64,000 nt of DNA from an uncultured Gammaproteobacteria bacterium (GTDB lineage: Bacteria; Patescibacteriota; Patescibacteriia; UBA1558; 2-01-FULL-52-15), in contig CAYRBH010000005.1 of NCBI GenBank assembly GCA_964422585.1, forward strand, positions 3,401 to 67,400. The letters run 5' to 3'. The position numbers and the translations under genes are program-made. Shown piece after piece: positions 12,197-61,403 of the stretch. Numbering within the stretch: position 1 is the stretch's first letter; each line of letters opens with the position of its first letter. The notes beneath the pieces were generated by a model that saw only the letters and a list, made by a program, of their open reading frames with translations, ran no database searches and was not told the DNA's origin.

Positions 12197-12234
12197 ATAA
12201 TTCGAGGGCATAGTAAGTCGGACAGTATACGATT

Positions 12235-12957: not shown

Positions 12958-12961
12958 TCCT

Positions 12962-17899: not shown

Positions 17900-17901
17900 A
17901 C

Positions 17902-42968: not shown

Positions 42969-45527
42969 ATGCGGTCACTTACTACCAAAACAAAAAATAT
43001 AAGCCGGACATTCTGGATACTGCTCATGACCGTCGCGGTCAGCGGAGTTGGTATTTTGTTAGCGCATCCGGTCTATGCTGATTGGGTGCAGGATGTGTTC
43101 GGCCCGATCATACTCTATGGTATATTCTCGCCTTTCATAATTCTTCTGAACCTCCTGACCTATGCGTTGGTGAAAGTCGCTCTGTACAATGGTTTTGCTA
43201 ACGCAACCATCGTCAATATCGGCTGGCCGATCATTCGAGATGTCAGTAATATGTTCTTCGTGCTGATCTTGTTGGTTATCGCTATCGGTACGATAGTGAA
43301 ATGGGACAGAATCAATTACCGGCAGAACTTACGACGCCTCATCATCATGGCTTTGCTCATCAATTTCAGCAAGACCATCGTCGTTTTTTTCATTGATATA
43401 TCTCAGATTTTCACCCTAACCTTCATCAATGCGGTCAGCAGTGTGCTGCAAGTCGGTATGATCACGGCATTAGGCTTGAATAAAATAGCGAACCCGGTCA
43501 CTGAAGGATTGATAGATACCTCTACTCAGGCAGGTATCGGGTTATTTACCTATATCATGGCCGGCATTATGGTCGCGATAGCTGCACTCACGGTGGCAGT
43601 TATGGTCATTATTTTCGTAGTGCGTATCATTACTCTTTGGGTTTTGATGGTGTTCGCGCCGCTGGCTTTCTTGGCCAGCACCTTACCGCAAACAAAACGT
43701 TGGTATGATGAGTGGTGGGATGCATTAGGCAAGGCGCTGGTCGTAGCGCCGGTTCTTGCCTTCATGCTCTGGCTGGTGTTCGCGGTTGTTTCTAAAGATG
43801 CAAGTTTTGCGAATGTCGGTGGTTTCACAGGAACTGATCCCGCCCCCCAAGGCGTTGCCCCGGGCGACATCATCGCCTTCGCGACAGCTATAGGGCTTCT
43901 GATCTACTCTATCAAGCTTGCGATACAAATGGGCGGTGCTGGTGGTAAATTCGCTTCTGCATTGCAGAGCAAAGCAGCGGGCGGAGCTAAGTGGCTTGCC
44001 TATGGTTCAAGCGGCAAGGGAGGATTGGTCGGCTTGGTGAAGAGCGGAGCTACCGCGGCAGTGACAAGGCCGGTACAGACTGCGGGAAATATCGCAGGAG
44101 GAGCTTATCGTTTGACGGTAGGCGGCTTAGGAGCTGGCGGGGTACAAACAGTGGGACGTATTATCGGCAGCGAACGCATACAGCGTGCTGGCGCCCGAGT
44201 TAGAGAGGATGTTGCTGCGCGTGGTCGACGCTTTGATGCTGCTACGAAAGAATCTCGCGCTACGTTCGATTCTTCTCGTAATGTATTTGCGCGTACGGCG
44301 AGATTTGGTCTGGGCGTATTGAGCCGGCAGGAAGAGGATCGTCAGAAAGCCCGTGCTGCTATATATACAGGGTCTACTGCTCGCGAAGATTTGAAGTCAC
44401 GTGTCGATAATATTCAGAACCCAGTTATCTTCCCTGCCAAGAAAGCTGAGGAGGCTCGCCAGATAGTGAAGGATGGTCAGCTAGAAGAAATAGAGAAGAT
44501 GAGCAAAGCAGGCCAGCTTCCAGAGGGATTTGCACAGCAAGTCTTTGACCGCTTCATCTCTGATTCTGGTTTGACTGCCCAAGAACAGCTCGAGTACAAG
44601 AAGAAAAATCTGCGTTATGTGAAGGATAGGCAGGAACGGAAAAAACTTAATAATGAGCTTGCTGATGATAAGAAACTGCCGTCTCTCGATGATCTGCGTA
44701 GTAAGAATGCTGCTGGTGAAAACGAAGTCGCAGCAAATTTCGTGGCAGACGCCTATGGTCGTCTGAGTAAGGATGATTTTGGTGATCTCATGAAAAAGAT
44801 GCCGCGCGATCTGCAGGACGCTATCGCTAAAGGAATGCAGATCTCCATGCGTCGCTTATCCGATACTGCCACAGGGCGTGATCCGAAAGAAATTGATAAG
44901 GATCTCGAGCGCATACGCGGCGAGCTGATCAAGCGTGATCCTGATAATATACGCAGTACGTACTCGAAGCCAATAGAGAAGGGCCCTGATGGCCAGTATC
45001 GTTTCAATACTCTGGCTGCTTCAGATGAAGCGATCATCAGGCAGCATGTTCGCAAGCTCAAGCCGAAAGAATTCAGCAGTATGAAAGAGGACACCTTGCG
45101 CGACGTCGGTTACCATTTGGCACCGGGCGATATCGTCAAAGTTATCAACCATGAGGATATGAATCCTGAGCAGAAAGAGGCTATCATTGAGAGCGTCGGA
45201 AGCCACTTGGGGGATGAGAATATCAATGTTACCTTTAATAGCATACTCAAGAATGACCTAGTAGGAGGCGACACTCGAAAATTGGTACAAGAATCGTTGA
45301 ACCCTGCTAGCCCAGACAGCATTTTCAGTAAGCTGAAAACAGCTGGTGGTGATCCTGATGCAGCAGTTGCGGCTACAGATACCGATGATGTCGCTAAGTT
45401 GAAACAGCGTCTTGCCGCGTATCGTAAAATGAAAGTTGCTATAGACGCTTATGATACATCGAAAGGCGGCGGCTCGAAGCCGAAGGATTCCGCGACGCCA
45501 CCTCCTCCAGATAGCCGTACGCGTTAG
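42969..45527 (+). CDS. Polytopic membrane protein with long hydrophilic C-terminal domain; putative VirB6/TrbL-like T4SS channel component
   Basis: The start is 3 bp after the giant gene. It has a signal/TM and about six TM helices in the first ~330 aa with a large loop, a Gly-rich segment, and a ~450-aa charged coiled-coil C-terminus. The topology resembles VirB6/TrbL/ConG. Confidence 0.45.
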   Translation: MRSLTTKTKNISRTFWILLMTVAVSGVGILLAHPVYADWVQDVFGPIILYGIFSPFIILLNLLTYALVKVALYNGFANATIVNIGWPIIRDVSNMFFVLILLVIAIGTIVKWDRINYRQNLRRLIIMALLINFSKTIVVFFIDISQIFTLTFINAVSSVLQVGMITALGLNKIANPVTEGLIDTSTQAGIGLFTYIMAGIMVAIAALTVAVMVIIFVVRIITLWVLMVFAPLAFLASTLPQTKRWYDEWWDALGKALVVAPVLAFMLWLVFAVVSKDASFANVGGFTGTDPAPQGVAPGDIIAFATAIGLLIYSIKLAIQMGGAGGKFASALQSKAAGGAKWLAYGSSGKGGLVGLVKSGATAAVTRPVQTAGNIAGGAYRLTVGGLGAGGVQTVGRIIGSERIQRAGARVREDVAARGRRFDAATKESRATFDSSRNVFARTARFGLGVLSRQEEDRQKARAAIYTGSTAREDLKSRVDNIQNPVIFPAKKAEEARQIVKDGQLEEIEKMSKAGQLPEGFAQQVFDRFISDSGLTAQEQLEYKKKNLRYVKDRQERKKLNNELADDKKLPSLDDLRSKNAAGENEVAANFVADAYGRLSKDDFGDLMKKMPRDLQDAIAKGMQISMRRLSDTATGRDPKEIDKDLERIRGELIKRDPDNIRSTYSKPIEKGPDGQYRFNTLAASDEAIIRQHVRKLKPKEFSSMKEDTLRDVGYHLAPGDIVKVINHEDMNPEQKEAIIESVGSHLGDENINVTFNSILKNDLVGGDTRKLVQESLNPASPDSIFSKLKTAGGDPDAAVAATDTDDVAKLKQRLAAYRKMKVAIDAYDTSKGGGSKPKDSATPPPPDSRTR

Positions 45528-45571: not shown

Positions 45572-46867
45572 ATGCCTTTTGACTCGCTGAAAACGCTGCC
45601 GCCAGCAGTCCGTGAAGAATTACTTGATGACAAGTATGTTGCCTTTTTTGATACACTCTATGCGTCATATGGTTTGACCGGTGTTCAGGTTGCTGTCTAT
45701 GGGGACATTGTCCGAGATATTATATTCAAGAAGCGCCCGGTCCTTGATTTTTCTGAACTGCTAACACAAAGGATGTCTGACCCTCAGAACATTGACCTGC
45801 GTGGACTTGCACTGCAAACAGCGCTACATCGTTTCTGGCCCATTAATTACTATCTTGGTAATGTTGATCTTCTGATCCGCCGCCTCGGTGGGGTCGTGCC
45901 GGCCCCTGTGCTTCCTCGTATCGTCGAAGCTGATGATGAAAAAGGGGATGAGCCTGTGCCTGCGGACGAAGCTCCTCAAGAGGGCGGCTGGGTACAGGGC
46001 GTTGCGAAAGAGATACTGCGGCGCTACCAGTCCTATGCGGAGCTCTACCTCACCCAGAAGCCTATACGCGACAGTGAGGACCGGTTAAAAGCCCCCACCC
46101 TCAATAATTGGCTGCAGGACTATTTACATACCGTGGGAGCAGAAGGTACTGGTAGCTTGAAGCGCAGCAAGTATTTGACTCGGAGTATGAACGCGCTTGC
46201 TTTGAACGGCCCAGAAAAACAAAATCTGTTGAATTTTTTGCTTTCCTATGAGGAAGGCATGCCTATGTATTGGCATGTGGCTGAGCAGCAGTATTTGCTG
46301 ATCGAGGCAGAGATGCCTACAGAACAGGCGCAGGCGAAAGCTGCGCAGCAGTCCACCGAGCAGATGTCTGGACTCGTCGAGAAATATACTTCGATACAAC
46401 GTAGTTATCAGGCTCTCTTTGAAGAAAAGAAGAAAGGCCTGGAACTCGAGATCAATGGCAATAACGCAAAGATAGCTGATATCGTTTGGGATGCCCTGGG
46501 CTTAGGTGATAGCGAACGCTGTCTCGCCGCACTGGATTTGCTCATCGATCATCATTGGCTGCTGGAAACACTGAAGACCGATCATCGATTCCAGGGAATC
46601 GTCAGCAGGATCCTTGGAGTGAAGTATGGCCTTGAAGCAAAGAACACCTGGAATGGCGACCTGACGACCGGTATGATGCTTGCTCTGTTCTGGAAATTAG
46701 TGCTGGTGGATAAGCTTGGCCTGGATGAGATGACGGCAGCCATACTTGCTGATTACTATAGGAAGAAGCTCGAACTGAAGGCGAGTCCGGTCTATTTAGA
46801 CCTTAAGTTAGGAACATTCTTGTTTAGAGATGTCACGTATAAAGACAGGGCATTCAGTTTTGCGTAA
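45572..46867 (+). CDS. Hypothetical soluble protein
   Basis: 431-aa ORF with no TM helices and no recognisable motifs. It follows the VirB6-like gene on the same strand. Confidence 0.4.
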   Translation: MPFDSLKTLPPAVREELLDDKYVAFFDTLYASYGLTGVQVAVYGDIVRDIIFKKRPVLDFSELLTQRMSDPQNIDLRGLALQTALHRFWPINYYLGNVDLLIRRLGGVVPAPVLPRIVEADDEKGDEPVPADEAPQEGGWVQGVAKEILRRYQSYAELYLTQKPIRDSEDRLKAPTLNNWLQDYLHTVGAEGTGSLKRSKYLTRSMNALALNGPEKQNLLNFLLSYEEGMPMYWHVAEQQYLLIEAEMPTEQAQAKAAQQSTEQMSGLVEKYTSIQRSYQALFEEKKKGLELEINGNNAKIADIVWDALGLGDSERCLAALDLLIDHHWLLETLKTDHRFQGIVSRILGVKYGLEAKNTWNGDLTTGMMLALFWKLVLVDKLGLDEMTAAILADYYRKKLELKASPVYLDLKLGTFLFRDVTYKDRAFSFA

Positions 46868-50185: not shown

Positions 50186-51502
50186 ATGGAAGAAAATAAA
50201 AATCAAACAGGACAAGCAGGCCCGAATGGCATTGTCGTCAAAGATTATGACGGCAATTTTAAGGTATTGAGCGACGGAGAACTGAAAGATCTCGATGCAT
50301 TGCTTTCGTCTACCGAGAGTAGCGGGTCCTCAGCACAGCCGATGTCAATGGCAGCTCAGCAGGATGGTGGTGTCCTTAGTTTTCCCAAGTTTACTGACCT
50401 GGCAGTCATCCCAAAGGATGAACATTTCCAGGCTCCTGAGACGAAACAGACCGGAAATAAGGTGGCTGAGTTACAGTTCCATCCTGACGATACAGCTGAG
50501 GTTGAGCGCGAACTAGAAAAGTTGAACGCAGCCTTTAATTTGAATACGCAGAAGCAGTACAGCGTTGCTAAGATCACGCAGAAGCTTATTGATAAGCACG
50601 GGCTGAAACTTTCTCAGGAGGATGTGTCAGCCTTGCATAAGGTACTCCTTTCTTATTTCCGTCAGGCACGAAGCTTGGTCGAGACGAGAGCTATGCTGAC
50701 CCAGTCGAAGCAGGCTGGTGGCCTTGGGATAGCCTTGGATACCGCTGACCATATGATCGCCGTCTTGAAGCATTTGAAGCTGAAGATAGAGGAAAGCGAC
50801 GGCATCGTTGTTGAGGTTGATGAGCCTTCAGCAGGTGCTGCGCCAGCATCTCCGAAAATGGTCGAAGAGAAGAAAATCCAGCCTCAACAAAGGCCAATGC
50901 CTGCTCCGGAACCTCCCAAACCTGCCCTGCCGAATCTCGCGACGTTTACGCCGCCTCCGATGGCAGCAAAAGTAGAACCAGCTCCCGTAAGGCCAATGAC
51001 ACCGCCACCCGCTCCTGCCCCGGAGCCTCCGCGTCCAGAGCAGCCGAAGACGCCGGAACAGCCAAGGCCTGTTGTAGCGGAGGAGACGCCGAAGATCAAT
51101 CGACCGCAGATCCCTAGTTTCAAGCCCCCGATGATGGAGATTAAGCGCCCGCAGACAAATGCTGTTCTTTCTGGAAAACCGACAGGGCGTGTCGACGAAC
51201 TTGCCCTCATGGACATGGCAACGTGGCGCATGCTCGATCCTGATCCACGCATCCGCGCAGGCAAGATCTTGGGCAAAATACAGAACTTGGAACAAGAGTC
51301 ACTGACCAGAAAGAGCCAGGGCATTCAAGCATGGCGTTCGAACGAGGTATATCAGTACTATCTGATGATCGGGCAGATGAGCTTGGAGCAGAAGAAAGAT
51401 GTCGCCGAAGTGATACAGGCTTTGACCGCGCAGGGCCAGCAGACATTGACCCTTGATGAGTTCGAGGCGATCTCGGACCTGAATAGAATGTTACGATACT
51501 AG
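50186..51502 (+). CDS. Hypothetical protein with central Pro-rich segment; first gene of the T4SS-like operon
   Basis: 438-aa ORF with a PxP-rich region (PAPEPPKPALP...PPPAPAPEPPRPEQPKTPEQPRP). The stop lies 2 bp before the PrgI-like gene. Confidence 0.4.
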   Translation: MEENKNQTGQAGPNGIVVKDYDGNFKVLSDGELKDLDALLSSTESSGSSAQPMSMAAQQDGGVLSFPKFTDLAVIPKDEHFQAPETKQTGNKVAELQFHPDDTAEVERELEKLNAAFNLNTQKQYSVAKITQKLIDKHGLKLSQEDVSALHKVLLSYFRQARSLVETRAMLTQSKQAGGLGIALDTADHMIAVLKHLKLKIEESDGIVVEVDEPSAGAAPASPKMVEEKKIQPQQRPMPAPEPPKPALPNLATFTPPPMAAKVEPAPVRPMTPPPAPAPEPPRPEQPKTPEQPRPVVAEETPKINRPQIPSFKPPMMEIKRPQTNAVLSGKPTGRVDELALMDMATWRMLDPDPRIRAGKILGKIQNLEQESLTRKSQGIQAWRSNEVYQYYLMIGQMSLEQKKDVAEVIQALTAQGQQTLTLDEFEAISDLNRMLRY

Positions 51503-51504
51503 CA

Positions 51505-51966
51505 ATGCAAAAATTCGTGGTACCACAATTCATCGACGTCGAGAGCAAGATCCTGGGTCCTATCACGGTCCGGCAGTTCGCGACGGTCGCGGTCGGCGCG
51601 GTGTTCCTCTTCGCTGCCTATAAGCTGGCTACGTTTAATTTATTCCTGATCTGGGCGACTCTCATTCTCGGAGCTACCATGTTGCTCGCATTCTTTAAGT
51701 TCAATGGCCTTCCTTTTCACATCTTCATGCTGAATGTCGTATCCACCTATAAGCGTCCTATGCTGCGGGTATGGCTGAAAGAAGAGTATAAACCAGTGAA
51801 AGAATCCAAGAACAATAAAGATAAGGCTGAAGAGAAATTTTTCGTCCCGAAGAAGGAATTTTCATCCGAGAAGCTCTCTGAGCTTGCCCTCATAATCGAT
51901 ACGGGCGGTATCTATAAAGGGGAGGCGGAAGCGAATCGTATCAATAAGTCTTTGTATGAAAAGTAA
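51505..51966 (+). CDS. PrgI/VirB3-like small membrane protein
   Basis: 153 aa. The N-terminal ...IDVESKILGPITVRQFATVAVGAV... is followed by two TM helices, and the gene sits directly upstream of VirB4. This is the pattern of PrgI/TcpE/ConD-family proteins, recalled from memory. Confidence 0.5.
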   Translation: MQKFVVPQFIDVESKILGPITVRQFATVAVGAVFLFAAYKLATFNLFLIWATLILGATMLLAFFKFNGLPFHIFMLNVVSTYKRPMLRVWLKEEYKPVKESKNNKDKAEEKFFVPKKEFSSEKLSELALIIDTGGIYKGEAEANRINKSLYEK

Positions 51967-52636
51967 GGCATTACAAGGTAATAAACCGAAGGTCTCTACG
52001 CAGCGTTTCTTGGATATCGCGGAGATCCGCGATGATATGGTCGTGATGAAGGATGGGACGGTGCGCGCGGTTCTGATGGTTTCGTCGGTTAACTTCGACC
52101 TTAAGTCTGAGGAAGAGCAGAATGCCATGGTCGGATCCTATGTGCAGTTCCTGAACTCACTGCAATTCCCTTTGCAGATCGTAGTACAGTCGCGTCCGTT
52201 GAATATCGATGAGTATATACAGCGCCTTATCATCACCGAACGCGAACATTCCAATGAGCTGCTGCGCATGCAGACCGCCGACTACCGCAATTTCGTTAAT
52301 GACCTGGTACATCTTGAGAAGATCATGAGCAAGAAGTTTTTCATCGTAGTGCCGTATGCGCCAGGGCAGGATAATAAGTTGAAATTCAGCGACCGCTTCG
52401 TAAGTTTGTTCTCGACAGCCAAGGCGGTTACCGTGAGCCGTAAGAAATTTGAGAACTATTCCCGTGAACTGAATAAGCGCGCGCTCTTCATCTATTCAGG
52501 CACGACCAGTATGGGATTGACCGCTCGCCGTTTGAATACACAAGCCCTGATTGAGCTGTATTACAATAGTTATAATCCCTCCCTATCTCAGAATGAGCAG
52601 TTGGGAGACATTAATGAATTATCAATCGACGAGTAA
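51956..52636 (+). CDS. VirB4-family N-terminal domain, encoded as a separate ORF (split VirB4, part 1)
   Basis: STQRFLDIAEIRDDMVVMKDGTVRAVLMVSSVNFDLKSEEEQNAMVGSYVQFLNSLQFPLQIVVQSRPLNIDEYI resembles the N-terminus of Gram-positive conjugative VirB4 ATPases (PrgJ/TraE/TcpF type). The TAA stop overlaps the next ATG (TAATG). Confidence 0.55.
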   Translation: MKSKALQGNKPKVSTQRFLDIAEIRDDMVVMKDGTVRAVLMVSSVNFDLKSEEEQNAMVGSYVQFLNSLQFPLQIVVQSRPLNIDEYIQRLIITEREHSNELLRMQTADYRNFVNDLVHLEKIMSKKFFIVVPYAPGQDNKLKFSDRFVSLFSTAKAVTVSRKKFENYSRELNKRALFIYSGTTSMGLTARRLNTQALIELYYNSYNPSLSQNEQLGDINELSIDE

Positions 52637-54543
52637 TGTTTAAACCAAAAGAAGCGCAAGCGACGAAGCAGCAAGAGGATCAGCCGATGCTCTCGTTCGA
52701 GGAGCAGAAATCGATAGGCGTAGAACGAGCGGAGACCGAAGGCGAATTACTCTTGGCGGAGAAGGCGTTCCGCGAGGGTGTCGTCTCAATCACCGATATT
52801 ATAGCACCGGCTGCTTTCAAGGTAGACTCCAGCTTTGTACGCTTGGGAGAACAATTCGTGCGGACAGTATTCGTTGTCGCTTACCCGCGCTATATTACGA
52901 TCGGCTGGTTCGCGCCGATCATCAATTTCAGCCTGGCGCTCGATATCGCGATGTTCTTCTATCCGGTCGACAGCGCTATAATCTTGAAAAAGTTGAAGTA
53001 TAAGGTCGGAGCCATCGAAGCGCAGATAGCCGCAGACTTAGAGAAAGGTGCGCCTCGCGACCCTGTGCAGGAAACAGCGCTCAGGGACATCGAGTCTTTG
53101 CGTGACTCACTGAGCCAGGGCACTGAGAAATTTTTTAAATTCGCTCTGTATATCACGCTGTACTGCAAATCCAAAGAAGAGTTAGATTCGAATACCGATA
53201 AGATCGAGAGTACGCTTGGTGCATATTTGGTCCTTTCACGCAGGTCGCTCTGGCAAGCGGAGCAAGGCTTCAATTCGACTCTGCCTCTCGGCAATGATGA
53301 GATCGCGATCTCGAACAATATGTCATCATCGCCGGCGGCCGCATCGTTTCCCTTCATTTCATCTGAGCTCACCTCGGATAATGGCATCATGTATGGCATC
53401 AATCGGCACAATAACAGCTTGATTATTTTCGATCGTTTCAGCTTACAGAATGCGAATTCGGTCGTCTTCGCGACCTCAGGCGCGGGCAAAAGTTATACGA
53501 TCAAACTCGAAGTGCTGCGCAGCATGATGTTAAATACTGATGTCATCTGTATTGATCCTGAGAAAGAGTATCTGCATCTCTCTGATGCTGTCGGCGGCAC
53601 TTACATCAACTTGTCATTGAACTCAGATAGCAAACTGAATCCTTTCGACCTGCCGACGAACTTGGGTGACAGCAAGCCAGAGGATGTACTCAGGAGCGCG
53701 GTAATCACGCTGAAAGGCTTGATCAGACTCATGGTCGGTGAATTGACGCATGATGAGGACTCGATCGTCGACCGTGCCTTGCTTGAGACCTACGCGAAGA
53801 AGGATATCAGCTCGACCAGCGATTGGTCGAAAGCGGAAATGCCGCTCATGGCTGATCTTGAGCAGATACTCGCTGGTATGATCGGGGGAGAGGACCTCGC
53901 TCTGCGTATCAAGAAGTACACACAAGGAACCTTCTCTGGACTGTTCAATAGCAGGACTAATGTTGACATTACGAATCAGCTTGTTGTCTTCAGCGTCCGC
54001 GACTTGGAAGATGAGCTGCGGCCGATCGCTATTTATACTATCGTAAACTATATCTGGAACGTGGTGCGCTCACATGTGAAGAAGCGCATCCTGGTCATCG
54101 ATGAAGCGTGGTGGCTCATGCAGCATGAGGATTCGGCGAAGTTCATCTATGCCTTGGTCAAGCGTTGCCGCAAATACTACCTGGGCGTCACGACCATTAC
54201 GCAAGACGTGAATGACTTCCTGCGATCACCTTATGGACAGGCTATCGTTACCAACTCCAGTATGCAGATCCTGTTGAAGCAATCACCTGCATCCGTTGCG
54301 CTCATTCAGAAGACCTTCATATTGACCGAGGGTGAGAAGTATTTACTGCTCGAATCAGGAGTCGGAGAAGGCATTTTCTTCGCCGGTAACAAGCATGCCG
54401 CGATTAAAGTGCTCGCTTCCTATACTGAAGATCAGATCATCACCTCAGATCCGAAACAACTTTTGCAAATAGAGGAATCTAAGAAAGAGTTCAAGCAGGC
54501 TATGCAATTGCAGCAGGAGTCTGCCCCTGAGCCAGCAGCTTAA
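52636..54543 (+). CDS. VirB4-family T4SS ATPase (split VirB4, part 2; contains the full ATPase core)
   Basis: Walker A VVFATSGAGKSYT, Walker B ILVIDEAWWLM, and the surrounding AAA_10/VirB4-type blocks (VAYPRYITIGW..., GINRHNNSLIIFDRF, TTITQDVNDF). Confidence 0.85.
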   Translation: MFKPKEAQATKQQEDQPMLSFEEQKSIGVERAETEGELLLAEKAFREGVVSITDIIAPAAFKVDSSFVRLGEQFVRTVFVVAYPRYITIGWFAPIINFSLALDIAMFFYPVDSAIILKKLKYKVGAIEAQIAADLEKGAPRDPVQETALRDIESLRDSLSQGTEKFFKFALYITLYCKSKEELDSNTDKIESTLGAYLVLSRRSLWQAEQGFNSTLPLGNDEIAISNNMSSSPAAASFPFISSELTSDNGIMYGINRHNNSLIIFDRFSLQNANSVVFATSGAGKSYTIKLEVLRSMMLNTDVICIDPEKEYLHLSDAVGGTYINLSLNSDSKLNPFDLPTNLGDSKPEDVLRSAVITLKGLIRLMVGELTHDEDSIVDRALLETYAKKDISSTSDWSKAEMPLMADLEQILAGMIGGEDLALRIKKYTQGTFSGLFNSRTNVDITNQLVVFSVRDLEDELRPIAIYTIVNYIWNVVRSHVKKRILVIDEAWWLMQHEDSAKFIYALVKRCRKYYLGVTTITQDVNDFLRSPYGQAIVTNSSMQILLKQSPASVALIQKTFILTEGEKYLLLESGVGEGIFFAGNKHAAIKVLASYTEDQIITSDPKQLLQIEESKKEFKQAMQLQQESAPEPAA

Positions 54544-54554
54544 ATACTACTCGT

Positions 54555-55145
54555 ATGCAGCAGCAACAAGGAAAATACAATAAGAATCGATTGGCAGCAC
54601 TGGGTGTATTGATACTGCTGCTCCTGTTGCTGCTCTTCCTGATATGGTGGTGGTTCATACCGCACTCGAGTGCGCCAACGGGCCCGCAGCCTACCGCGAC
54701 CGCGCCTGCGCACGATACGGTGGTATTACCGCCACAGCAGGCGCCAGCGACCGATGTGCAGCCCAAAGTTGACACGCCAGCCCCTGGCGAGACTGAAGTG
54801 CGCTCTCTCGCGCGGAATTTCACTGAGCGGTATGGGAGCTGGTCGACCGATAGTAAGTTTCAGAACCTTAAGGATTTGTTCCCGAATATAACCTCACGAT
54901 TGCAGGCGTCATTCCAGAAAACGATTGACACCTCATCGGCGCCGACTGATTTCAAGAGCGCTGAGACGCGGGTGGTCCAGATACAGATCGACTCGCTAAC
55001 GGCGACCAAGGCCAGTGTCTTGGTCACGGCACAGCAGACGACCCGCGATGCCGCGCTGAAAGAGACGCAAGCTTTCGTGAAACTAGCGCTCACGATGGTG
55101 AATGATGGTAAGTATTGGTATGTGGACAGCGCTGAGTGGAAATAA
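54555..55145 (+). CDS. Bitopic membrane protein with C-terminal NTF2-like domain; candidate VirB8-like component
   Basis: An N-terminal poly-Leu TM helix and a P/T/A linker, then a ~120-aa domain ending ...VNDGKYWYVDSAEWK with a strand pattern suggestive of an NTF2-like fold. Topology and position match VirB8. Tentative. Confidence 0.3.
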   Translation: MQQQQGKYNKNRLAALGVLILLLLLLLFLIWWWFIPHSSAPTGPQPTATAPAHDTVVLPPQQAPATDVQPKVDTPAPGETEVRSLARNFTERYGSWSTDSKFQNLKDLFPNITSRLQASFQKTIDTSSAPTDFKSAETRVVQIQIDSLTATKASVLVTAQQTTRDAALKETQAFVKLALTMVNDGKYWYVDSAEWK

Positions 55146-55154
55146 TAACTACCT

Positions 55155-55736
55155 ATGGCTGAAGCAGTACAACAATTCCCTTACTATGACGCAGTAGCGC
55201 GCGATCAAGAAGAAGCGCGCCGCGCGCGCGAATTGCGCGCGCGGCGAGTGATGACCGGCGCCCTTCGAGCTGAACAGGGCCGTCAGAGCGCCTTCGGCCA
55301 AGTCGGTCAATCGGCCGAGGCTTTGCAGGAGATCCAGAAGAAAATAAAGAATATACGGAATGTCGTCACGCTTATCGGAGGACTGACTTCGCTCACCCTG
55401 ATTGGTATTATTTGGACCATTATACAATGGAATCTACAGATGATATGGAAAGTATTTGGATTGCCAGGTGAAAATTATTTTGGCCTTTCCTGGTGGCTTG
55501 TGCCGGTGATACTATTGGTTGATTTTATCCTGTTTATACTTTTTATTGCAGTGATGCTGGTCGCGTTCTTCGTTTCAAATCCGACCCAAGCCTGTAGCAT
55601 CGCTCCCGATCTGACGAAGTTAGCGCTTGGCGATGGATTCATAGGAACCTTGGGTACTTTAGGAGCTAAAGTGCTCTGTGGCATCCCTGCTCTGATCAGC
55701 CACGCTGTAGATACAATTAAGAGCGCGGTTCAATAG
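55155..55736 (+). CDS. Hypothetical membrane protein (Arg-rich N-terminus, 3-4 TM helices)
   Basis: 193-aa ORF inside the operon with RRARELRARRVM followed by hydrophobic helices. No family recognised. Confidence 0.35.
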   Translation: MAEAVQQFPYYDAVARDQEEARRARELRARRVMTGALRAEQGRQSAFGQVGQSAEALQEIQKKIKNIRNVVTLIGGLTSLTLIGIIWTIIQWNLQMIWKVFGLPGENYFGLSWWLVPVILLVDFILFILFIAVMLVAFFVSNPTQACSIAPDLTKLALGDGFIGTLGTLGAKVLCGIPALISHAVDTIKSAVQ

Positions 55737-55737
55737 T

Positions 55738-56970
55738 ATGGATAGAAAAAGAATATTACTTATCACGTTATTCATCCTGTCGGTCATTCTGTTCGGCTGG
55801 GGTTTGTATGCGATATTCTTCAGCAGTCTCTTGCCGGGCGCTCCTACCAATGGGAATACGAATCAAGTTGGCACCTTGCCAACCCCTGGCAATGGCGGTC
55901 CGGGCAGAGTCAATACCAATGCAAGCCAGACACCGGTGCTGCCCGGTTTCTCGACGACTATCGATGTGAATGCGCCCACGGATATCGCACAGGGCGGCTA
56001 TACTAAAGTAGTGGATTATGGTTCAACGCAGGTTCAGGACTTCGTTTCCGGATCCCAGGGGGCTTTTTTCTACAACAAAGACTCGGGCTTATTCTATAAA
56101 ATGGATGCTGGCAAGGCAGTACCGATTTCTGATCAGAAGTTTTTTGATGTAAGTACTATTACCTGGTCTGCTGATCAGAGTAAGGCTATCCTGGAGTATC
56201 CTGATGGCTCGAATATCGTCTACGATTTCAAAGCGAATAAGCAGATATCCTTGCCGAAAGAGCTGACCGATTTTTCGTTCTCGCCGCAAGGTGATTCTAT
56301 AGCCGGCAAATGGATGGGCAAAACTAATGATGAGAATTGGCTCATGGTGGGAGATTCGAATGGTTCGAATTTTAAGCTGATTGAGCCGCTCGGTGATCGA
56401 TACAATAATGTGCAAGTAGATTATTCTAATGACGGGCAAGTCGTGGCCCTGGTGCGAGACCCGGTCGACGCGAACACACAGAGCGTACTGCCTATCGGTT
56501 TGAATGGTGAGAATTTCCCCTCATTCAATGTGGAAGGGCTGAAATTCGAGAGCAAATGGGCCCCCAGCGGCGATCAGTTGCTCTATAATGTCTCGACCAA
56601 AGACAATAACTATGATCCTAAGCTCCTCATTACCGGTGGTAATGGTGATACGCTTGGTTCGAGCAGTCTGGATCTACAGCTGAACACCTGGGCTTCGAAA
56701 TGTGCCTTCAATGCAGCCTCGACTTCGCTCTATTGTGCCGAGCCAACGAGTTTGCCGCGCGGTTCAGGTCTCTATCCTGATCTGGCGCGGGGTATTCCTG
56801 ACGTGTTCTATCGTATCGACCTGCGGAGCGGACAGAAGATACCGCTGGCAGTCCCGGTCGGCAATCAATCGTCGTATAGCGCTTCATCGGTATTCCTGTC
56901 GCAGGATGAAAAGTCATTGTACTTCGTCGATGAATTGACCAATCAACTGCATTCGATACGGCTACAGTGA
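55738..56970 (+). CDS. N-terminally anchored beta-propeller-like (TolB/WD40-like repeat) protein
   Basis: A TM helix, then a G/N/P/T linker and repeated ~40-aa blocks with aromatic/Gly/Asp patterns (..DGS.IVYDF.., ..DGQVVALVRD.., ..SGDQLLYNV..). Confidence 0.35.
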   Translation: MDRKRILLITLFILSVILFGWGLYAIFFSSLLPGAPTNGNTNQVGTLPTPGNGGPGRVNTNASQTPVLPGFSTTIDVNAPTDIAQGGYTKVVDYGSTQVQDFVSGSQGAFFYNKDSGLFYKMDAGKAVPISDQKFFDVSTITWSADQSKAILEYPDGSNIVYDFKANKQISLPKELTDFSFSPQGDSIAGKWMGKTNDENWLMVGDSNGSNFKLIEPLGDRYNNVQVDYSNDGQVVALVRDPVDANTQSVLPIGLNGENFPSFNVEGLKFESKWAPSGDQLLYNVSTKDNNYDPKLLITGGNGDTLGSSSLDLQLNTWASKCAFNAASTSLYCAEPTSLPRGSGLYPDLARGIPDVFYRIDLRSGQKIPLAVPVGNQSSYSASSVFLSQDEKSLYFVDELTNQLHSIRLQ

Positions 56971-57617
56971 TGAAGCGTTTTTTTATAGTGTTAGGTATTC
57001 TTCTGGTAGTTATCGGAGGCTTGGCATTGCTCATTAGCATCTATGGGACGGAGGATCAGCAAGCAGCCACTCCCGTAACAACTCCTGTGCAGCATGGGTT
57101 GCACGCTGCAGACACCGATCCTTCTCAGGGACCACGTAATGGGAAGGTGACGGTCATCACGATGAGTTCATTTACCTGTCCAGCATGTAAAAGTACGAGC
57201 GAAGAGATGGATCAGTTGCGGGCGCTCTATCCGGATCAGGTCCGTCTCGTCTGGAAGGATCTGCCTGATACCGTTGGTACTGCCTATCAGGCCGCGATAG
57301 CTGCTCGTTGCGCTCAGGAGCAAGGCAAGTTCTGGCAATTTCACGATGTTCTTTTTCAGAAACAAGATTTTCTAGCGACGCGTTCCCTGTATACCTTATG
57401 GGCTCAGGCTCTAGGTATGCTGAGCGATGTATTCGATAACTGCCTGGATAAGCAACAGACGAAGCCGCTCGTCGATGCTAATATCAACGAAGCGCTCCAG
57501 CAGGGTGTGAAACTGGTCCCTTATGTGCAAATAGGGGATATGACCTATGAAGGGCCGCAGACGCTTACGGTGTATCGGACAGCAGTCGATCAAGCTCTTG
57601 GTATGACAAAGAAGTAA
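56967..57617 (+). CDS. DsbA-like thiol:disulfide oxidoreductase (membrane-anchored)
   Basis: An N-terminal TM helix, then a thioredoxin fold with SFTCPACK (CPxC), DsbA-like helical-insert sequence (FWQFHDVLFQKQ) and a cis-Pro region (KLVPYV). Confidence 0.75.
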   Translation: MMKRFFIVLGILLVVIGGLALLISIYGTEDQQAATPVTTPVQHGLHAADTDPSQGPRNGKVTVITMSSFTCPACKSTSEEMDQLRALYPDQVRLVWKDLPDTVGTAYQAAIAARCAQEQGKFWQFHDVLFQKQDFLATRSLYTLWAQALGMLSDVFDNCLDKQQTKPLVDANINEALQQGVKLVPYVQIGDMTYEGPQTLTVYRTAVDQALGMTKK

Positions 57618-57619
57618 GT

Positions 57620-58525
57620 ATGTCCCCCCAAAAAACCTCCCTCATTGTAGTGACTTTGGCGCTGCTCACCCTGTGTGCCATGCCTGTGCATGCCCTGACG
57701 GGTACTGATGTCATGAAGTACACTGGCTTAACCAAAGCCGACCAGACCTGCACGTTCACGTCCATGTCAGGCCTCCTGAACAATGGTAAAGTATTCACCA
57801 GCGGCTGTACCGGAGGCGACCTCGTTGCCTTTATCAATGCCCTCGATACCTTCTTCTACCGCCTCGCCATAGTCTTAGCAGTTCTCATGATAACCATCGG
57901 GGGTATGCAGTGGCTCATGGCCATAGGCAATTCCTCCAAAATCTCCAATGCCAAAGATACTATCCAACAGGCTGTCATAGGCCTGATCCTTGCTATGACT
58001 GCCATACTACTCTTCAACCAGATAGACCCAAGCTTTACGAATTTGAAGAGTATAGATTTGAAGAAATTGGATTCGGCAACAAGCGCTTCATGCGAATCTA
58101 TAACTGCGATAGCGCAATGTCTCGCTACAAAAAATTGTCGATGGACCCCAACGGATCCTACGAAAGGAGCATTGAGCGCAGGTACCTGTAGTGCTGGAGA
58201 CGCGACACAGGATGGTGACTGTAGCGGAGCTAGCTCAGGAACTTGCCTCAATTACACAGGTTGTTATTTAAGCAAAGATGGGCTGTGTGCTTCGTCGCCG
58301 AATATATGTATAAAGACTGCCGCTGACTATCAATCTTTCAAAGCTCAATACTCCACGGTCAAGCCTGAGTGCTGTGTTAATAAAAGCGGGCCGACACCCG
58401 TATATGCTTGGGCTAACTTTGTACTGAATAAGAATATTGAGTGTTCTACAGTATGCGGCTCGGATGCTCTTTCTACAGAATGGCAGAAAGGCGATATAAA
58501 TGACTGCATAAATAATATGCAATAG
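57620..58525 (+). CDS. Pilin-like (VirB2/TrbC-like two-helix hairpin) protein, paralogue A, with Cys-rich C-terminal domain
   Basis: A signal peptide (…PVHA), a short Cys-containing segment, two long hydrophobic helices separated by NSSKISNAKDT, then a ~150-aa domain with about 15 Cys. The N-terminal 145 aa are identical to paralogue B. Confidence 0.4.
   Translation: MSPQKTSLIVVTLALLTLCAMPVHALTGTDVMKYTGLTKADQTCTFTSMSGLLNNGKVFTSGCTGGDLVAFINALDTFFYRLAIVLAVLMITIGGMQWLMAIGNSSKISNAKDTIQQAVIGLILAMTAILLFNQIDPSFTNLKSIDLKKLDSATSASCESITAIAQCLATKNCRWTPTDPTKGALSAGTCSAGDATQDGDCSGASSGTCLNYTGCYLSKDGLCASSPNICIKTAADYQSFKAQYSTVKPECCVNKSGPTPVYAWANFVLNKNIECSTVCGSDALSTEWQKGDINDCINNMQ
57689..58047. repeat. Direct repeat copy 1 (359 bp, identical to 58608..58966)
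   Basis: A constant offset of 919 bp and no mismatch found by eye over the whole length. The identical antisense ORFs in the track (57856..58251 and 58775..59008) share the same peptide, which corroborates the repeat. Confidence 0.9.
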
Positions 58526-58538
58526 TTTTGAATTAGAA

Positions 58539-59651
58539 ATGTTTACTAGAGCGCGTCTCTTTATCCTTGTTAGTGTCGGCCTATCACTGGTACTGTCTGT
58601 CCCGGCTCATGCCCTGACGGGTACTGATGTCATGAAGTACACTGGCTTAACCAAAGCCGACCAGACCTGCACGTTCACGTCCATGTCAGGCCTCCTGAAC
58701 AATGGTAAAGTATTCACCAGCGGCTGTACCGGAGGCGACCTCGTTGCCTTTATCAATGCCCTCGATACCTTCTTCTACCGCCTCGCCATAGTCTTAGCAG
58801 TTCTCATGATAACCATCGGGGGTATGCAGTGGCTCATGGCCATAGGCAATTCCTCCAAAATCTCCAATGCCAAAGATACTATCCAACAGGCTGTCATAGG
58901 CCTGATCCTTGCTATGACTGCCATACTACTCTTCAACCAGATAGACCCAAGCTTTACGAATTTGAAAGGCCCGACGCTTGTGACGTCAACTTTCAGTTGT
59001 GAGACCATTCAAGATCCTAGTTCATGTATTGCCCAGGCAGCGGCGAATTCTTGTAAGTGGACCTGCACCGATCCATCGGAAAGTAAGAAACGGGTACTCC
59101 CGCCGAACACCAAGTGGACCTCTGATTTTCAGAACCCACTGTGCATACCTGGGAAATGCACGACGGGCGTTACGACGGCCGGAGGTGCGGCAAATGCAGC
59201 AACTTGTGATAATACGAGTGGACTCGCGGCCCAGTATGGAACGAATCCGAACCTTACAAACTCGCCTCAGTTGAATGCTTTGATACAATGTGTTAACAGT
59301 AGTCCGGCCGGAGCTCTTCTCGGGCCAGATTCGAATCAGGGAACCTGGGAAAGTGCTCAGCATAACACAAAATGTAATTTTACGCGGGGTAATCCCATCT
59401 GTGGGCCATGTGTACACGCGGTGAACTCGTGTCACTATGGTGGTAAGACTGGTAATAATGGCGCTGAGGCCGTTGACTTTAACGCGGCAGATGGATCACC
59501 TGCCGGAGAAGCAGCGTTATGCCGGGCTTTGAGAGCTGCGAGTGCTGGCTGCAACTTCGGATTCCTTAACTTCGAAGGTAATCATACTCATGTAAGCACA
59601 GCCTCATGTGATGGCGATGGCACAGGCATCGGAACAGACTGTCCGAGCTAA
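58539..59651 (+). CDS. Pilin-like (VirB2/TrbC-like) protein, paralogue B, with a different Cys-rich C-terminal domain
   Basis: The N-terminal module is the same as paralogue A, with a perfect 359-bp DNA repeat. The C-terminal ~220 aa are unrelated, Cys/Gly/Asn-rich and end in ...DGDGTGIGTDCPS. Confidence 0.4.
   Translation: MFTRARLFILVSVGLSLVLSVPAHALTGTDVMKYTGLTKADQTCTFTSMSGLLNNGKVFTSGCTGGDLVAFINALDTFFYRLAIVLAVLMITIGGMQWLMAIGNSSKISNAKDTIQQAVIGLILAMTAILLFNQIDPSFTNLKGPTLVTSTFSCETIQDPSSCIAQAAANSCKWTCTDPSESKKRVLPPNTKWTSDFQNPLCIPGKCTTGVTTAGGAANAATCDNTSGLAAQYGTNPNLTNSPQLNALIQCVNSSPAGALLGPDSNQGTWESAQHNTKCNFTRGNPICGPCVHAVNSCHYGGKTGNNGAEAVDFNAADGSPAGEAALCRALRAASAGCNFGFLNFEGNHTHVSTASCDGDGTGIGTDCPS
58608..58966. 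repeat. Direct repeat copy 2 (359 bp, identical to 57689..58047)
   Basis: See copy 1. Identity ends exactly where the two C-terminal domains begin (…CTAATTTGAA then G vs A). Confidence 0.9.
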
Positions 59652-59655
59652 CGGT

Positions 59656-61029
59656 ATGGCTATACAGACGATATATGTTTGTTCCAACTGCGACGCCCAA
59701 GCTCCCAAGTGGTCTGGACGCTGTTTAGAGTGTGGTAAATGGGGGACCTTAGTTGAACAAGCAAAGCCGGTTATTGCGGCAAAGACCGCCCGAGGCAAAG
59801 CCGCGGGCGGCTCGAGGCCAGCCTTTTCTTCTGCGCCCGCAAAAGTCATTAAATTTTCTGACCTTGAACAAGGCGCGGTACAGCGCATTTCTGCCAAAGG
59901 TTTTCCCTTTGATGAGATTTTTCCAAAAGGCATAGCTTTAGGCAGCCTGACCTTGCTGACCGGCGAACCTGGTTCAGGTAAATCAACACTTGCTTTGCAG
60001 CTGATGCGGACTTTGAGTAGCGAGCATCAAGCCTTGTATGTCTCGGCAGAGGAGTCAGCGGTACAGGTGAAGGAACGTGCCAGTCGTGTAGGCACCTTTG
60101 GTCACTACTTTAGTATTACGGAAAGCACGAATCTGGAAGAAATCATCGCTACATTACATGTCCAGAAACCAAAAGTCGTGTGCATTGATTCTCTACAGGC
60201 CATAGTGAGCGCCGAAGTCACCGGTGATGCTGGATCTTTGAATCAAATCAGAGCCGTGACCGCGCAACTGTTAGAGTTAGCTCGTAAGGAACACATAGCA
60301 ATTCTTCTGATCGGTCATGTGACAAAAGACGGCACCTTGGCAGGTCCGAAATCGCTGGAACATTTGGTAGATGCAGTCTATTACCTCGAAGCTGATCGTA
60401 ACAGCAGTTATCGTCTCCTGCGCGTCTACAAGAATCGCTATGGCGCTTCAGGTGCAGTCCTCGTTATGCAAATGGGCGGGGGAGGCATGACAGCGGTCGC
60501 AAACCCAGCAACGATTTTCATTCATAACTTTAGCCCCAAGCCCGGCTCAGTGCTGACCGTGACTGAAATTGATGATCAGTTTTTCTTTCTGGAAGTTCAG
60601 GCTTTGGTTGCCAAAAGCGGTTTTGGCTATGCCAAGCGCACTGCGTCTGGTTTTTCTAAGTCGCGTCTTGAATTATTGCTCGCGATTGTCAAAAAACAAC
60701 TACATATCGATGCCGATCTCTATGATATCTATATCAATATTGCCGGCGGCTTTTCCGTGCATGAGCCGGCGCTTGATCTTGCAGTATTGATGAGTATTCT
60801 CTCAAGCCTCAAAGAGCAATCTTTGCCTCCGAAGACAGTTGTCTTTGGCGAACTTGGCCTTTCAGGAGAGCTGCGCGTGGTGAAAGACACGGGAGCACGC
60901 TTGAAGACTATTGCTGAACATGGGTTTGCAAACGTGTATTTCCCGCCGCTTGAACAGAAAGTACAGAGTAAACTAAATCTACACTCATTCGCTTCAATTA
61001 CAGAGTTTGTAAAAAAACTTGGTTGGTAA
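59656..61029 (+). CDS. radA: DNA repair protein RadA/Sms
   Basis: N-terminal C4 zinc finger (CSNCDAQAPKWSGRCLECGKWG), Walker A GEPGSGKSTL, the KNRYG motif and a Lon-protease-like C-terminal domain. The start is taken at the Met just after the upstream stop. Confidence 0.93.
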   Translation: MAIQTIYVCSNCDAQAPKWSGRCLECGKWGTLVEQAKPVIAAKTARGKAAGGSRPAFSSAPAKVIKFSDLEQGAVQRISAKGFPFDEIFPKGIALGSLTLLTGEPGSGKSTLALQLMRTLSSEHQALYVSAEESAVQVKERASRVGTFGHYFSITESTNLEEIIATLHVQKPKVVCIDSLQAIVSAEVTGDAGSLNQIRAVTAQLLELARKEHIAILLIGHVTKDGTLAGPKSLEHLVDAVYYLEADRNSSYRLLRVYKNRYGASGAVLVMQMGGGGMTAVANPATIFIHNFSPKPGSVLTVTEIDDQFFFLEVQALVAKSGFGYAKRTASGFSKSRLELLLAIVKKQLHIDADLYDIYINIAGGFSVHEPALDLAVLMSILSSLKEQSLPPKTVVFGELGLSGELRVVKDTGARLKTIAEHGFANVYFPPLEQKVQSKLNLHSFASITEFVKKLGW

Positions 61030-61034
61030 AACAT

Positions 61035-61403
61035 ATGTCTACAATCCACTTTATTCAGCATGGGTTCAAGAGACCCACTAAAGCGGCCGGCGCTCTTAAA
61101 GAGGCATTAGAGATTCGTGGAGTTGGAGTTTTATCAGAATTATATGACGGTTATAAACACATTGATTTAGCCATTCCTAGGGCAAAGATTAATATCGAGA
61201 TTGATGGTATTCAACATCTGATAAACCCATATCAAATTGTCGCAGACCTTTCGCGCGGATATTATTCCAATCAATTAGGTTACAATACTATGCATATACC
61301 AAACGAAATGATACGTTTACATCTGCCTGAAATTGCCGACGCTTTAGCCGAGGCATCTAAAATTCGAGAGCAAAGAATAAGGGTTCATCTCACAAAATCC
61401 TAA
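61035..61403 (+). CDS. DUF559 (Vsr-like endonuclease fold) domain protein
   Basis: ...DGYKHIDLAIPRAKINIEIDGIQH... matches the DUF559 core. The track ORF starts at a TTG that overlaps the radA stop; ATG at 61035 is the likelier start. Confidence 0.55.
   Translation: MSTIHFIQHGFKRPTKAAGALKEALEIRGVGVLSELYDGYKHIDLAIPRAKINIEIDGIQHLINPYQIVADLSRGYYSNQLGYNTMHIPNEMIRLHLPEIADALAEASKIREQRIRVHLTKS

Follow-up and report, generated by a model that had tools for sequence, protein, structure and literature searches.

A probable chromosomal type IV secretion locus of the Patescibacteria type with a candidate hydrolase domain borne on a pilin

A stretch of 64,000 nucleotides (positions 3,401 to 67,400 of contig CAYRBH010000005.1, assembly GCA_964422585.1; hereafter the window, whose own coordinates are used throughout) carries at 50186-59651 a cluster of ten open reading frames (ORFs). 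We read this locus, with more confidence than doubt, as a chromosomal type IV secretion system (T4SS) of the Patescibacteria clade in its ABY1 (Komeilibacteria-like) form, serving host contact and macromolecule exchange and not conjugation. Chromosomal, relaxase-less and pilin-bearing systems of this kind, associated in ABY1 with recG and radA, have already been published (Wang et al. 2023, PMC10633639; Quinonero-Coronel et al. 2025, PMC12102498), and the locus is an ordinary representative of them. Its discovery value is modest because both the system and its interpretation are in the literature; what is worth following is the fusion of a pilin with a putative hydrolase, the homogenisation of the pilin cores and the accessory proteins that are conserved (DsbA, propeller and Pro-rich protein). 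An earlier note on this DNA had proposed a compact Gram-positive-type T4SS core with a non-conjugative role. The core is indeed of the monoderm, MPF-FATA-like type, with a CD1110-family VirB4 together with VirB2-like pilins, and the non-conjugative role is the reading that we favour, in agreement with how Patescibacteria T4SSs are seen in the literature (PMC10633639, PMC12102498, PMC12857230).

The published systems define what is shared. In Ca. Southlakia epibionticum, the one species tested, epibiotic growth requires the Gram-positive-like T4SS, including its pilin array, and no relaxase or type IV coupling protein (T4CP) is recognisable (PMC10633639). A survey of 2,474 virB4 genes described a Patescibacteria VirB4 clade that is sister to MPF-FATA, with TrsD, PrgI/VirB3, VirB6 and VirB2-like pilins near virB4, with relaxases rare and with VirB8 detectable almost only in ABY1, whose T4SS loci commonly adjoin comF, recG and radA (PMC12102498); a 2025 FEMS review repeats the same picture (PMC12857230). 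With the systems of S. epibionticum (SEML1_0006-0019) and of the 2025 survey the window locus has in common its chromosomal location, an MPF-FATA-related VirB4, TrsD and PrgI/VirB3 adjoining virB4, a VirB6-like gene nearby, VirB2-like pilins (unusual for monoderms), the lack of a relaxase or T4CP in the cluster and the ABY1 association with recG and radA. The ABY1 version gives testable leads on the substrate and mode of action of the T4SS, among them a VirB8-fold subunit, which has been difficult to detect in the rest of the phylum, and a dedicated DsbA within the cluster.

We analysed the locus by searching the large ORFs of the window with Pfam and NCBIfam profiles at gathering (GA) or curated cutoffs, and by collecting related loci through a VirB4 scan over one genome per GTDB species, which gave 449 confirmed stretches; all counts of loci below refer to the best 80 of these 449, in which VirB4 is 68-95% identical to that of the window. 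All ten ORFs are intact and on the plus strand, with junctions of +2, -11, -1, +11, +9, +1, -4, +2 and +13 nt. The tight co-directional spacing described in the earlier note thus stands, with its nine genes corrected to ten ORFs and its gaps of -10 to +14 to -11 to +13. Matches above threshold were obtained for five of the ten ORFs (PrgI, VirB4, the DsbA-like protein and two T4SS_pilin proteins), with AAA_10 on VirB4, and several small ORFs, not VirB4 alone, are supported by hidden Markov model (HMM) or fold evidence, in place of the VirB4-only remnant of an ordinary integrated conjugative element (ICE) that the earlier note had named as the contrary case.

The setting of the cluster is conserved. 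In the nearest genomes the left part of the region reads giant protein, VirB6-like gene and a counterpart of the gene at 45572, then efp-rpsR-ssb-rpsF on the minus strand and a methyltransferase gene; the right part reads Pro-rich protein, PrgI, TrsD, VirB4, VirB8-like protein, in places a membrane protein, propeller, DsbA, pilins and radA, followed by recG. The core order Pro-rich protein-PrgI-TrsD-VirB4 is found in 66-80 of the 80 loci: Pro-rich homologues lie directly upstream of PrgI in 66, PrgI is present in 74 and TrsD is adjacent to VirB4 in all 80. Such a recurring order indicates that the arrangement is not due to chance, and the earlier placement of the cluster among housekeeping genes (rpsF cluster, radA/recG) is borne out by the synteny of relatives. 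Compared with the closest relative (L001), VirB4 (95% identity) and TrsD (94%) are conserved to about the same degree as rpsR (96%) and efp (91%), and the pilins are far less so (53-61%). Within the 64 kb, GC content is uniform with no compositional island, Pfam scans of the large ORFs detected no integrase domain, and the two tRNA genes (8763 and 14328) lie more than 35 kb from the locus. Together with the conserved order, these observations point to a stable chromosomal system and all but rule out a remnant of an ICE.

The informative record titles among these loci name Komeilibacteria, Falkowbacteria, Parcubacteria, Patescibacteria (group) and, once, Nanoarchaeota. [quoted passage not shown] Contigs titled 'uncultured Gammaproteobacteria bacterium' bear the same CPR-type locus as those titled Komeilibacteria, Falkowbacteria or Patescibacteria, and these titles are probably mislabels.

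The assignment as a T4SS is carried by the inner translocon. The PrgI/VirB3-like gene recognised earlier passes its Pfam threshold (Table 1), and its product has a hydrophobic stretch (aa 20-66) with room for two transmembrane segments. VirB4, the only Walker-A protein of the cluster, carries 279-ATSGAGKS and a Walker B-like ILVIDE at aa 485; the closest plasmid-borne VirB4s, which carry a CD1110 family annotation, belong to Bacillota and Actinomycetota and share 29-36% identity with it. The 226-aa ORF directly upstream matches TrsD (E 2.1e-9) and VirB4_plasma (E 4.2e-11, profile positions 93-240), in both cases below the curated cutoffs. It spans positions 15-119 of the conju_CD1110 profile, and the VirB4 ORF spans 180-730 of 752; judged from this alignment, the TrsD-like protein is the counterpart of the N-terminal domain of a CD1110-type VirB4, encoded by a gene of its own. 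The earlier description of a split VirB4 was correct in that the two ORFs are colinear with a single CD1110-type VirB4; what it described is an old and fixed two-gene arrangement. In all 80 loci the TrsD-like ORF stops before the VirB4 start, with varying frames and spacings, and on a megaplasmid of Pontibacillus sp. ALD_SL1 a homologous separate gene (30% identity to the TrsD-like protein, E 3e-26) overlaps virB4. These separate genes argue for a TrsD/TrsE-type arrangement and exclude a frameshift or pseudogene origin of the split.

Conjugative T4SSs of the MPF-FATA type (TrsC/TrsD/TrsE of pGO1, PrgI/PrgJ/PrgL of pCF10, CD1110 of CTn2) share with the window locus the CD1110-family VirB4, the separate TrsD-like gene, PrgI and a PrgL/TcpC-like VirB8 fold, and the nearest plasmid VirB4s come from Bacillota and Actinomycetota, as noted. 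In contrast, the window locus lacks a relaxase, a T4CP and a separate VirB1-type hydrolase (PrgK/TcpG-like), has VirB2-like pilins and is not on a mobile element. The Pontibacillus megaplasmid (NZ_CP062975.1, 351-361 kb) is the best plasmid match, with a VirB4 of 36% identity. It encodes in order a pilin-like protein (annotated as Mbov_0395 family), a large hypothetical protein, small proteins, the TrsD-like protein overlapping virB4, a CD1110-type VirB4 and a peptidoglycan DD-metalloendopeptidase; homology to the window is detectable for TrsD and VirB4 only. The annotation shows no relaxase in the 12 kb on either side of this cluster, PLSDB classes the plasmid as non-mobilizable, and the hydrolase is a separate gene of ~1050 aa, whereas the candidate hydrolase of the window is a pilin fusion. 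The Pontibacillus cluster adjoins flagellar genes. No closer analogue was found outside the CPR, and it may serve to model how the Patescibacteria system arose.

The VirB8-like protein, suspected earlier to have an NTF2 fold, was assigned from an AlphaFold2 (AF2) model. Hydropathy places a transmembrane segment at aa 9-40, and predicted local confidence (pLDDT) exceeds 90 for about aa 79-196 apart from one block at 81. The best matches of Foldseek in the PDB are VirB8 proteins or their relatives (CagV at E 4.9e-5, Rickettsia VirB8, TrwG, PrgL, TcpC and IcmL-like; E 5e-5 to 1e-3), with target-normalised TM-scores of 0.6-0.72 against isolated VirB8 domains. Sequence profiles were negative: there is no Pfam match, VirB8 PF04335 included, and the family profile touches PrgL (7aed) at E 4.1. 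On its modelled structure the product is a VirB8-fold protein, and homologues lie directly 3' of virB4 in 42 of the 80 loci; in S. epibionticum, in contrast, no VirB8 was found structurally (PMC12102498). VirB6 is probably encoded 7 kb upstream of the cluster. The candidate has ~8 transmembrane segments in aa 1-320 followed by a hydrophilic C-terminal extension of ~530 aa, matches the CD3337/EF1877 mobilome membrane protein at E 1.5e-3 and has homologues 4-8 kb upstream of virB4 in 31 of the 80 loci. The earlier assignment of this gene is thus supported by topology and conserved proximity, with the TrbL match below its GA cutoff.

The two pilin-like paralogues noted before both exceed the PF18895 threshold and lie 3-5 kb downstream of virB4. 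In the model, helices at aa 65-100 and 105-140 form the hairpin; the TrbC/VirB2 profile is matched by four of 18 homologues, and no NCBIfam profile matches the window pilins above noise. Pilin 1 contains 17 Cys over its full length; its C-terminal domain, ~155 aa long, gave no domain match. The C-terminal domain of pilin 2 resembles a Zn DD-peptidase, VanY and Hedgehog-N in fold, with moderate scores, and contains the motifs SCHYGG...AVD (aa 297-313) and EGNHTH (aa 346-351). In 22 diverse homologues the Ser, the His and the H-x-H are invariant and the Asp nearly so; the Glu is not invariant. The homologue P0050 has the canonical S-x-H-x-x-G-x-A-x-D spacing, and pilin 2 has a seven-residue insertion between His and Asp. 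From the modelled fold and these motifs, we consider it likely that the domain is LAS/M15-like (Hedgehog/DD-peptidase fold), and it is a probable Zn peptidoglycan peptidase. No Pfam match was obtained in 18 homologues and no PDB profile match, and hhalign found no similarity between the family and the M15_4 (L017) or VanY (L022) domains of relatives, so the LAS assignment depends on fold and motifs. With VirB1-type hydrolases and LAS enzymes (MEROPS M15) the domain appears to share the fold and the S-x-H...D/H-x-H metal-site pattern; it differs from LAS/M15 enzymes in being fused to a VirB2-like pilin, in being Cys-rich (disulfide-forming), in the insertion and in the lack of similarity to Pfam M15 profiles.

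Relatives bear true hydrolase domains at the same gene position. The syntenic pilin, encoded after dsbA and before radA, is fused to SLT in L015, L027, L051 and L060 (Pfam, 41-72 bits) and, by local HMM, in L038, to Peptidase_M15_4 in L017 (72 bits) and to VanY in L022 (27.1 bits against a GA cutoff of 25); the other pilins of the fusion-bearing loci are 230-590 aa long and have Cys-rich domains, and database relatives include pilin plus SLT and phage-lysozyme plus pilin proteins. The statement in the earlier note that the locus encodes no cell-wall hydrolase is therefore probably wrong. The C-domain of pilin 2 belongs to an unannotated family of some 217 clusters (50% identity), which is nearly always joined to T4SS pilins (pilin module in 119 of the 142 best clusters). 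In S. epibionticum, by comparison, separate peptidase and lysozyme genes lie downstream of virB4. In the Patescibacteria T4SS literature found there is no mention of pilin-hydrolase fusions, and PMC12102498 infers that VirB1 is not needed for pilus biogenesis. Such a fusion would account for the general scarcity of stand-alone VirB1 genes, and it suggests that the mechanism includes penetration of a cell wall, either the bacterium's own or that of the host.

The two pilin genes share a block of 359 nt, nt 70-428 of both, without a mismatch in ungapped comparison (a repeat search reports a perfect repeat of 300 nt), so that aa 24-143 are identical. The edges of the block are abrupt against divergent signal peptides and unrelated C-domains. 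Paralogous pilin cores are 89-94% identical in DNA within L001, L076 and L027 and far more divergent between genomes, which indicates concerted evolution. The identity of the block in the window suggests gene conversion, and assembly collapse could also produce it. In published Patescibacteria arrays the mean identity is 25% and the highest 54% (PMC12102498), whereas the window has only two pilins, with cores 100% identical over the block and with large Cys-rich C-terminal domains. The identical block could also permit recombinational gain or loss of pilin cassettes.

In the mechanism that we propose, VirB4 and TrsD, docked by VirB3, VirB6 and VirB8, would extract the pilins from the membrane into a short surface filament or conduit. 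The co-encoded DsbA would oxidise the pilin ectodomains, with their 17-18 Cys per pilin, and the pilin-displayed LAS/M15-like peptidase (SLT, M15_4 or VanY in relatives) would supply the missing VirB1 function, breaching the bacterium's own cell wall, that of the host cell, or both. The machine would then serve host-cell contact and macromolecule exchange in an episymbiotic lifestyle, not plasmid conjugation. A more specific form of this proposal, which we put forward tentatively, is that the 'missing VirB1' is built into the ABY1 pilin: the last pilin gene would combine a VirB2-like core with an interchangeable hydrolase, here of a new LAS-like family, the cores would be kept identical by gene conversion so that subunits with different arms co-assemble, and the resulting disulfide-stabilised, wall-cutting filament would drill the host envelope. 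No such filament is described for any T4SS in the literature that we found.

Several points weigh against the favoured reading. The tight coupling to radA (4 nt) is equally compatible with a DNA-related role. A T4CP or relaxase may be encoded elsewhere in the genome; the 5,713 VirD4 homologues known in Patescibacteria lie mostly far from virB4 (PMC12102498). The VirB6-like protein is sub-threshold, TrbL is matched by only four of its 23 homologues, and its family profile gives low-complexity matches only in the PDB. Both pilins bear C-terminal domains of 155-225 aa and the window has no 'bare' pilin, which may make a canonical, tightly packed VirB2 pilus sterically difficult. Taxonomic placement is taken from record titles, many of them bulk-labelled 'uncultured Gammaproteobacteria' (TPA records). 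The organism is uncultivated, the essentiality data stem from a different class (Saccharimonadia), and function is deduced from the genes.

A DNA-uptake T4SS of the ComB/Ced type, importing host or environmental DNA for recombination by RadA and RecG or as a nucleotide source, is an unlikely alternative. Helicobacter pylori ComB has a VirB2/3/4/6/8-type core without T4CP/VirD4, relaxase or VirB11, and so does the window system, whose cluster is also coupled to recombination genes. The radA gene starts 4 nt past the stop of pilin 2, with recG convergent, and is probably co-transcribed with the cluster; a functional link between the two is a prediction from gene order. A scan for promoters and terminators found fewer promoter-like sites than in shuffled sequences. 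In the related loci radA lies 3' of the cluster in 24 and recG in 21 of the 80, VirB4 has a cross-match to CedB (E 3e-16) that stays far short of the cutoff, and coordination of comF, recG and radA with nearby ABY1 T4SS genes has been suggested (PMC12102498). However, the adjacency may reflect lineage synteny, as the cluster also adjoins rpsF, ssb and efp and the intervening genes vary; general scans of the window detected no comEC, comEA or dprA; and competence in Saccharibacteria depends on type IV pili (T4P) and ComEC, with the T4SS essential independently of comEC (PMC12857230). The ComB system also belongs to a diderm and includes VirB7/9/10; for the window system DNA import would be a prediction from its adjacency to radA and recG, and cultivated Patescibacteria achieve competence via T4P/ComEC (PMC12857230). 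A small DUF559-like (endonuclease-like) ORF at 61023-61403 on the plus strand overlaps the radA stop by 7 nt and has no tblastn counterpart in the 80 loci.

It is less likely still that there is no pilus at all, the VirB2-like hairpins serving to anchor or target disulfide-rich enzymes (VirB1 equivalents) and binding domains beside a protein-secreting channel of Gram-positive style. Gram-positive T4SSs normally have no pili (PMC12102498, PMC12857230), the pilin-module proteins of the window and of related loci are all long (~230-590 aa) with large extra domains, and the hydrolase domains take the place of the VirB1-like enzymes that are otherwise lacking. Against this stand the 100% identity of the pilin core between the paralogues and a comparable homogenisation between paralogues within other genomes, which suggest co-assembly of the cores, the essential pilin arrays of S. 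epibionticum (PMC10633639) and the similarity to PF18895 and TrbC/VirB2.

That the locus is functional machinery for conjugation, served by a coupling protein and a relaxase from another part of the genome, seems to us very improbable. Among the large ORFs of the window none showed a VirD4, relaxase or VirB11 domain, in line with the earlier note's statement for the locus. T4CP genes are often distant from virB4, as the VirD4 counts show, and might be so here; but relaxases are rare (109 in 103 Patescibacteria genomes), the distant T4CP of S. epibionticum is non-essential while its T4SS is essential (PMC12102498), and the 64 kb show no mobile-element signature amid deeply conserved chromosomal synteny. 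A decaying ICE fragment, which the missing relaxase and T4CP and the seemingly 'split' VirB4 might suggest on first look, is scarcely credible for ten intact ORFs in which the TrsD/VirB4 split is kept in all 80 related loci and on the Bacillota megaplasmid, VirB4 and TrsD are conserved about like ribosomal proteins, and small ORFs have HMM or fold support.

Table 1. Features of the locus and its neighbourhood, and pilin-hydrolase fusions of related loci (window coordinates unless a locus handle precedes them)
Feature	Position	Strand	Basis
Giant secreted Cys-rich protein, 3283 aa	33115..42966	+	N-terminal hydrophobic signal-like segment; 155 Cys, evenly spread
VirB6-like polytopic membrane protein	42969..45527	+	TrbL PF04610 21.9 bits, E 1.6e-4, sub-threshold (GA 25.9)
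Conserved soluble protein after VirB6-like gene	45572..46867	+	no transmembrane segment; in 9 related loci
Pro-rich cytoplasmic protein, first cluster gene	50186..51502	+	composition, hydropathy, synteny
PrgI/VirB3-like small membrane protein	51505..51966	+	PF12666 32.7 bits (GA 27)
TrsD-like protein, 226 aa	51956..52636	+	NCBIfam TrsD, VirB4_plasma and conju_CD1110 matches
VirB4 ATPase	52636..54543	+	conju_CD1110 360.9 bits (cutoff 325); P-loop_TraG 98 bits; AAA_10
VirB8-like bitopic protein, 196 aa	54555..55145	+	AF2 model and Foldseek; N-terminal transmembrane segment, Pro-rich linker, NTF2-like ectodomain
Small membrane protein, 193 aa	55155..55736	+	hydropathy: ~3 transmembrane segments, Arg-rich cytoplasmic N-terminus
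Membrane-anchored extracytoplasmic beta-propeller (PD40/TolB-like), 410 aa	55738..56970	+	N-terminal transmembrane segment; family-level matches
Membrane-anchored DsbA-like thiol-disulfide oxidoreductase	56967..57617	+	Thioredoxin_4 88 bits; DSBA 44.7 bits; CPAC aa 71-74
Pilin paralogue 1	57620..58525	+	T4SS_pilin PF18895 34.1 bits (GA 26.6); signal peptide, VirB2-like hairpin
Pilin paralogue 2	58539..59651	+	PF18895 34.4 bits (GA 26.6); signal peptide, VirB2-like hairpin, Cys-rich linker, putative LAS/M15-like C-domain aa ~215-360
359-nt block, copy 1	57689..58047	+	100% identical between pilin genes; covers mature N-terminus and hairpin
359-nt block, copy 2	58608..58966	+	identical to 57689..58047
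radA	59656..61029	+	TIGR00416 sms 411.7 bits (cutoff 403); start inferred from translation
Pilin-SLT fusion, single ORF at T4SS cluster end, ABY1-like genome	L015:16286-17530		SLT
Pilin-SLT fusion, likewise	L027:16509-17705		SLT
Pilin-SLT fusion, likewise	L051:15150-16469		SLT
Pilin-SLT fusion, likewise	L060:15288-16298		SLT
Pilin-M15_4 fusion, likewise	L017:16474-17820		M15_4
Pilin-VanY fusion, likewise	L022:16244-17596		VanY

The accessory proteins of the cluster agree with the labels given to them before. The Pro-rich protein has a linker with 29% Pro (aa 215-330), a conserved C-terminal domain of ~115 aa and no transmembrane segment; it has no Pfam or NCBIfam match and no PDB profile match, and the homologues found with its family profile are all Patescibacteria proteins annotated 'hypothetical protein', without Pfam domains. 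The propeller protein itself has no significant Pfam match and no useful PDB profile match; support for the fold comes from its family, in which Beta-prop_THOC3 is matched by 10 of 21 homologues (best E 7e-7), PD40 by five (1e-7) and Peptidase_S9_N by three. DsbA-like proteins are encoded in 36 of the 80 loci, mostly immediately ahead of radA or of the final pilin gene. Conserved DsbA, anchored propeller and Pro-rich proteins distinguish the window and other ABY1 clusters, and neither DsbA, nor thioredoxin, nor a propeller is mentioned in the main text of PMC12102498. The membrane protein encoded between the VirB8-like and propeller genes has the ~3 hydropathy segments expected from the earlier label, no Pfam or NCBIfam match and homologues detectable in the five closest loci only. 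The 5' part of its gene contains a perfect GC-only inverted repeat (55218-55246; 12-bp stem, 5-nt loop) that codes for ARRARELRARR; as L001, L003 and L004 do not conserve it, it is probably incidental.

Upstream of the cluster, the giant protein ends 2 nt before the VirB6-like gene, a pairing seen in eight related loci where the flank allows a view. It has a weak CBM_4_9 match only, no NCBIfam match and no internal repeats; from its position it is a candidate surface partner or adhesin, or a T4SS substrate. Judged from Cys counts and the position of dsbA, it and the two pilins are plausible clients of the cluster DsbA. The soluble protein encoded after the VirB6-like gene has no Pfam or NCBIfam match. 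At 11762-14080 on the plus strand, successive genes encode a protein resembling cupredoxins, a membrane protein of the DsbD/CcdA type and a thioredoxin-like/Redoxin protein; with the T4SS-linked DsbA, they suggest an extracytoplasmic system of thiol redox that would serve many Cys-rich surface proteins. Proteins with thrombospondin type-3 (TSP3) repeats and weak matches to the cell-cohesion and gliding lipoproteins MtsD and CglD are encoded at 23659-25035 and 32349-33101 (plus strand), one of them just upstream of the giant protein. A LysM plus Peptidase_M23 protein (25564-26859, minus strand; 122.7 bits), 24 kb from the T4SS, is a candidate wall hydrolase in trans; M23 and LysM domains have been noted on VirB1-like proteins (PMC12102498). 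Finally, three genes with Mur-ligase domains are clustered at 15325-20505 on both strands, and the product of one of them, 867 aa long, has the ligase domains in its C-terminal third only, preceded by ~560 N-terminal residues without assignment.

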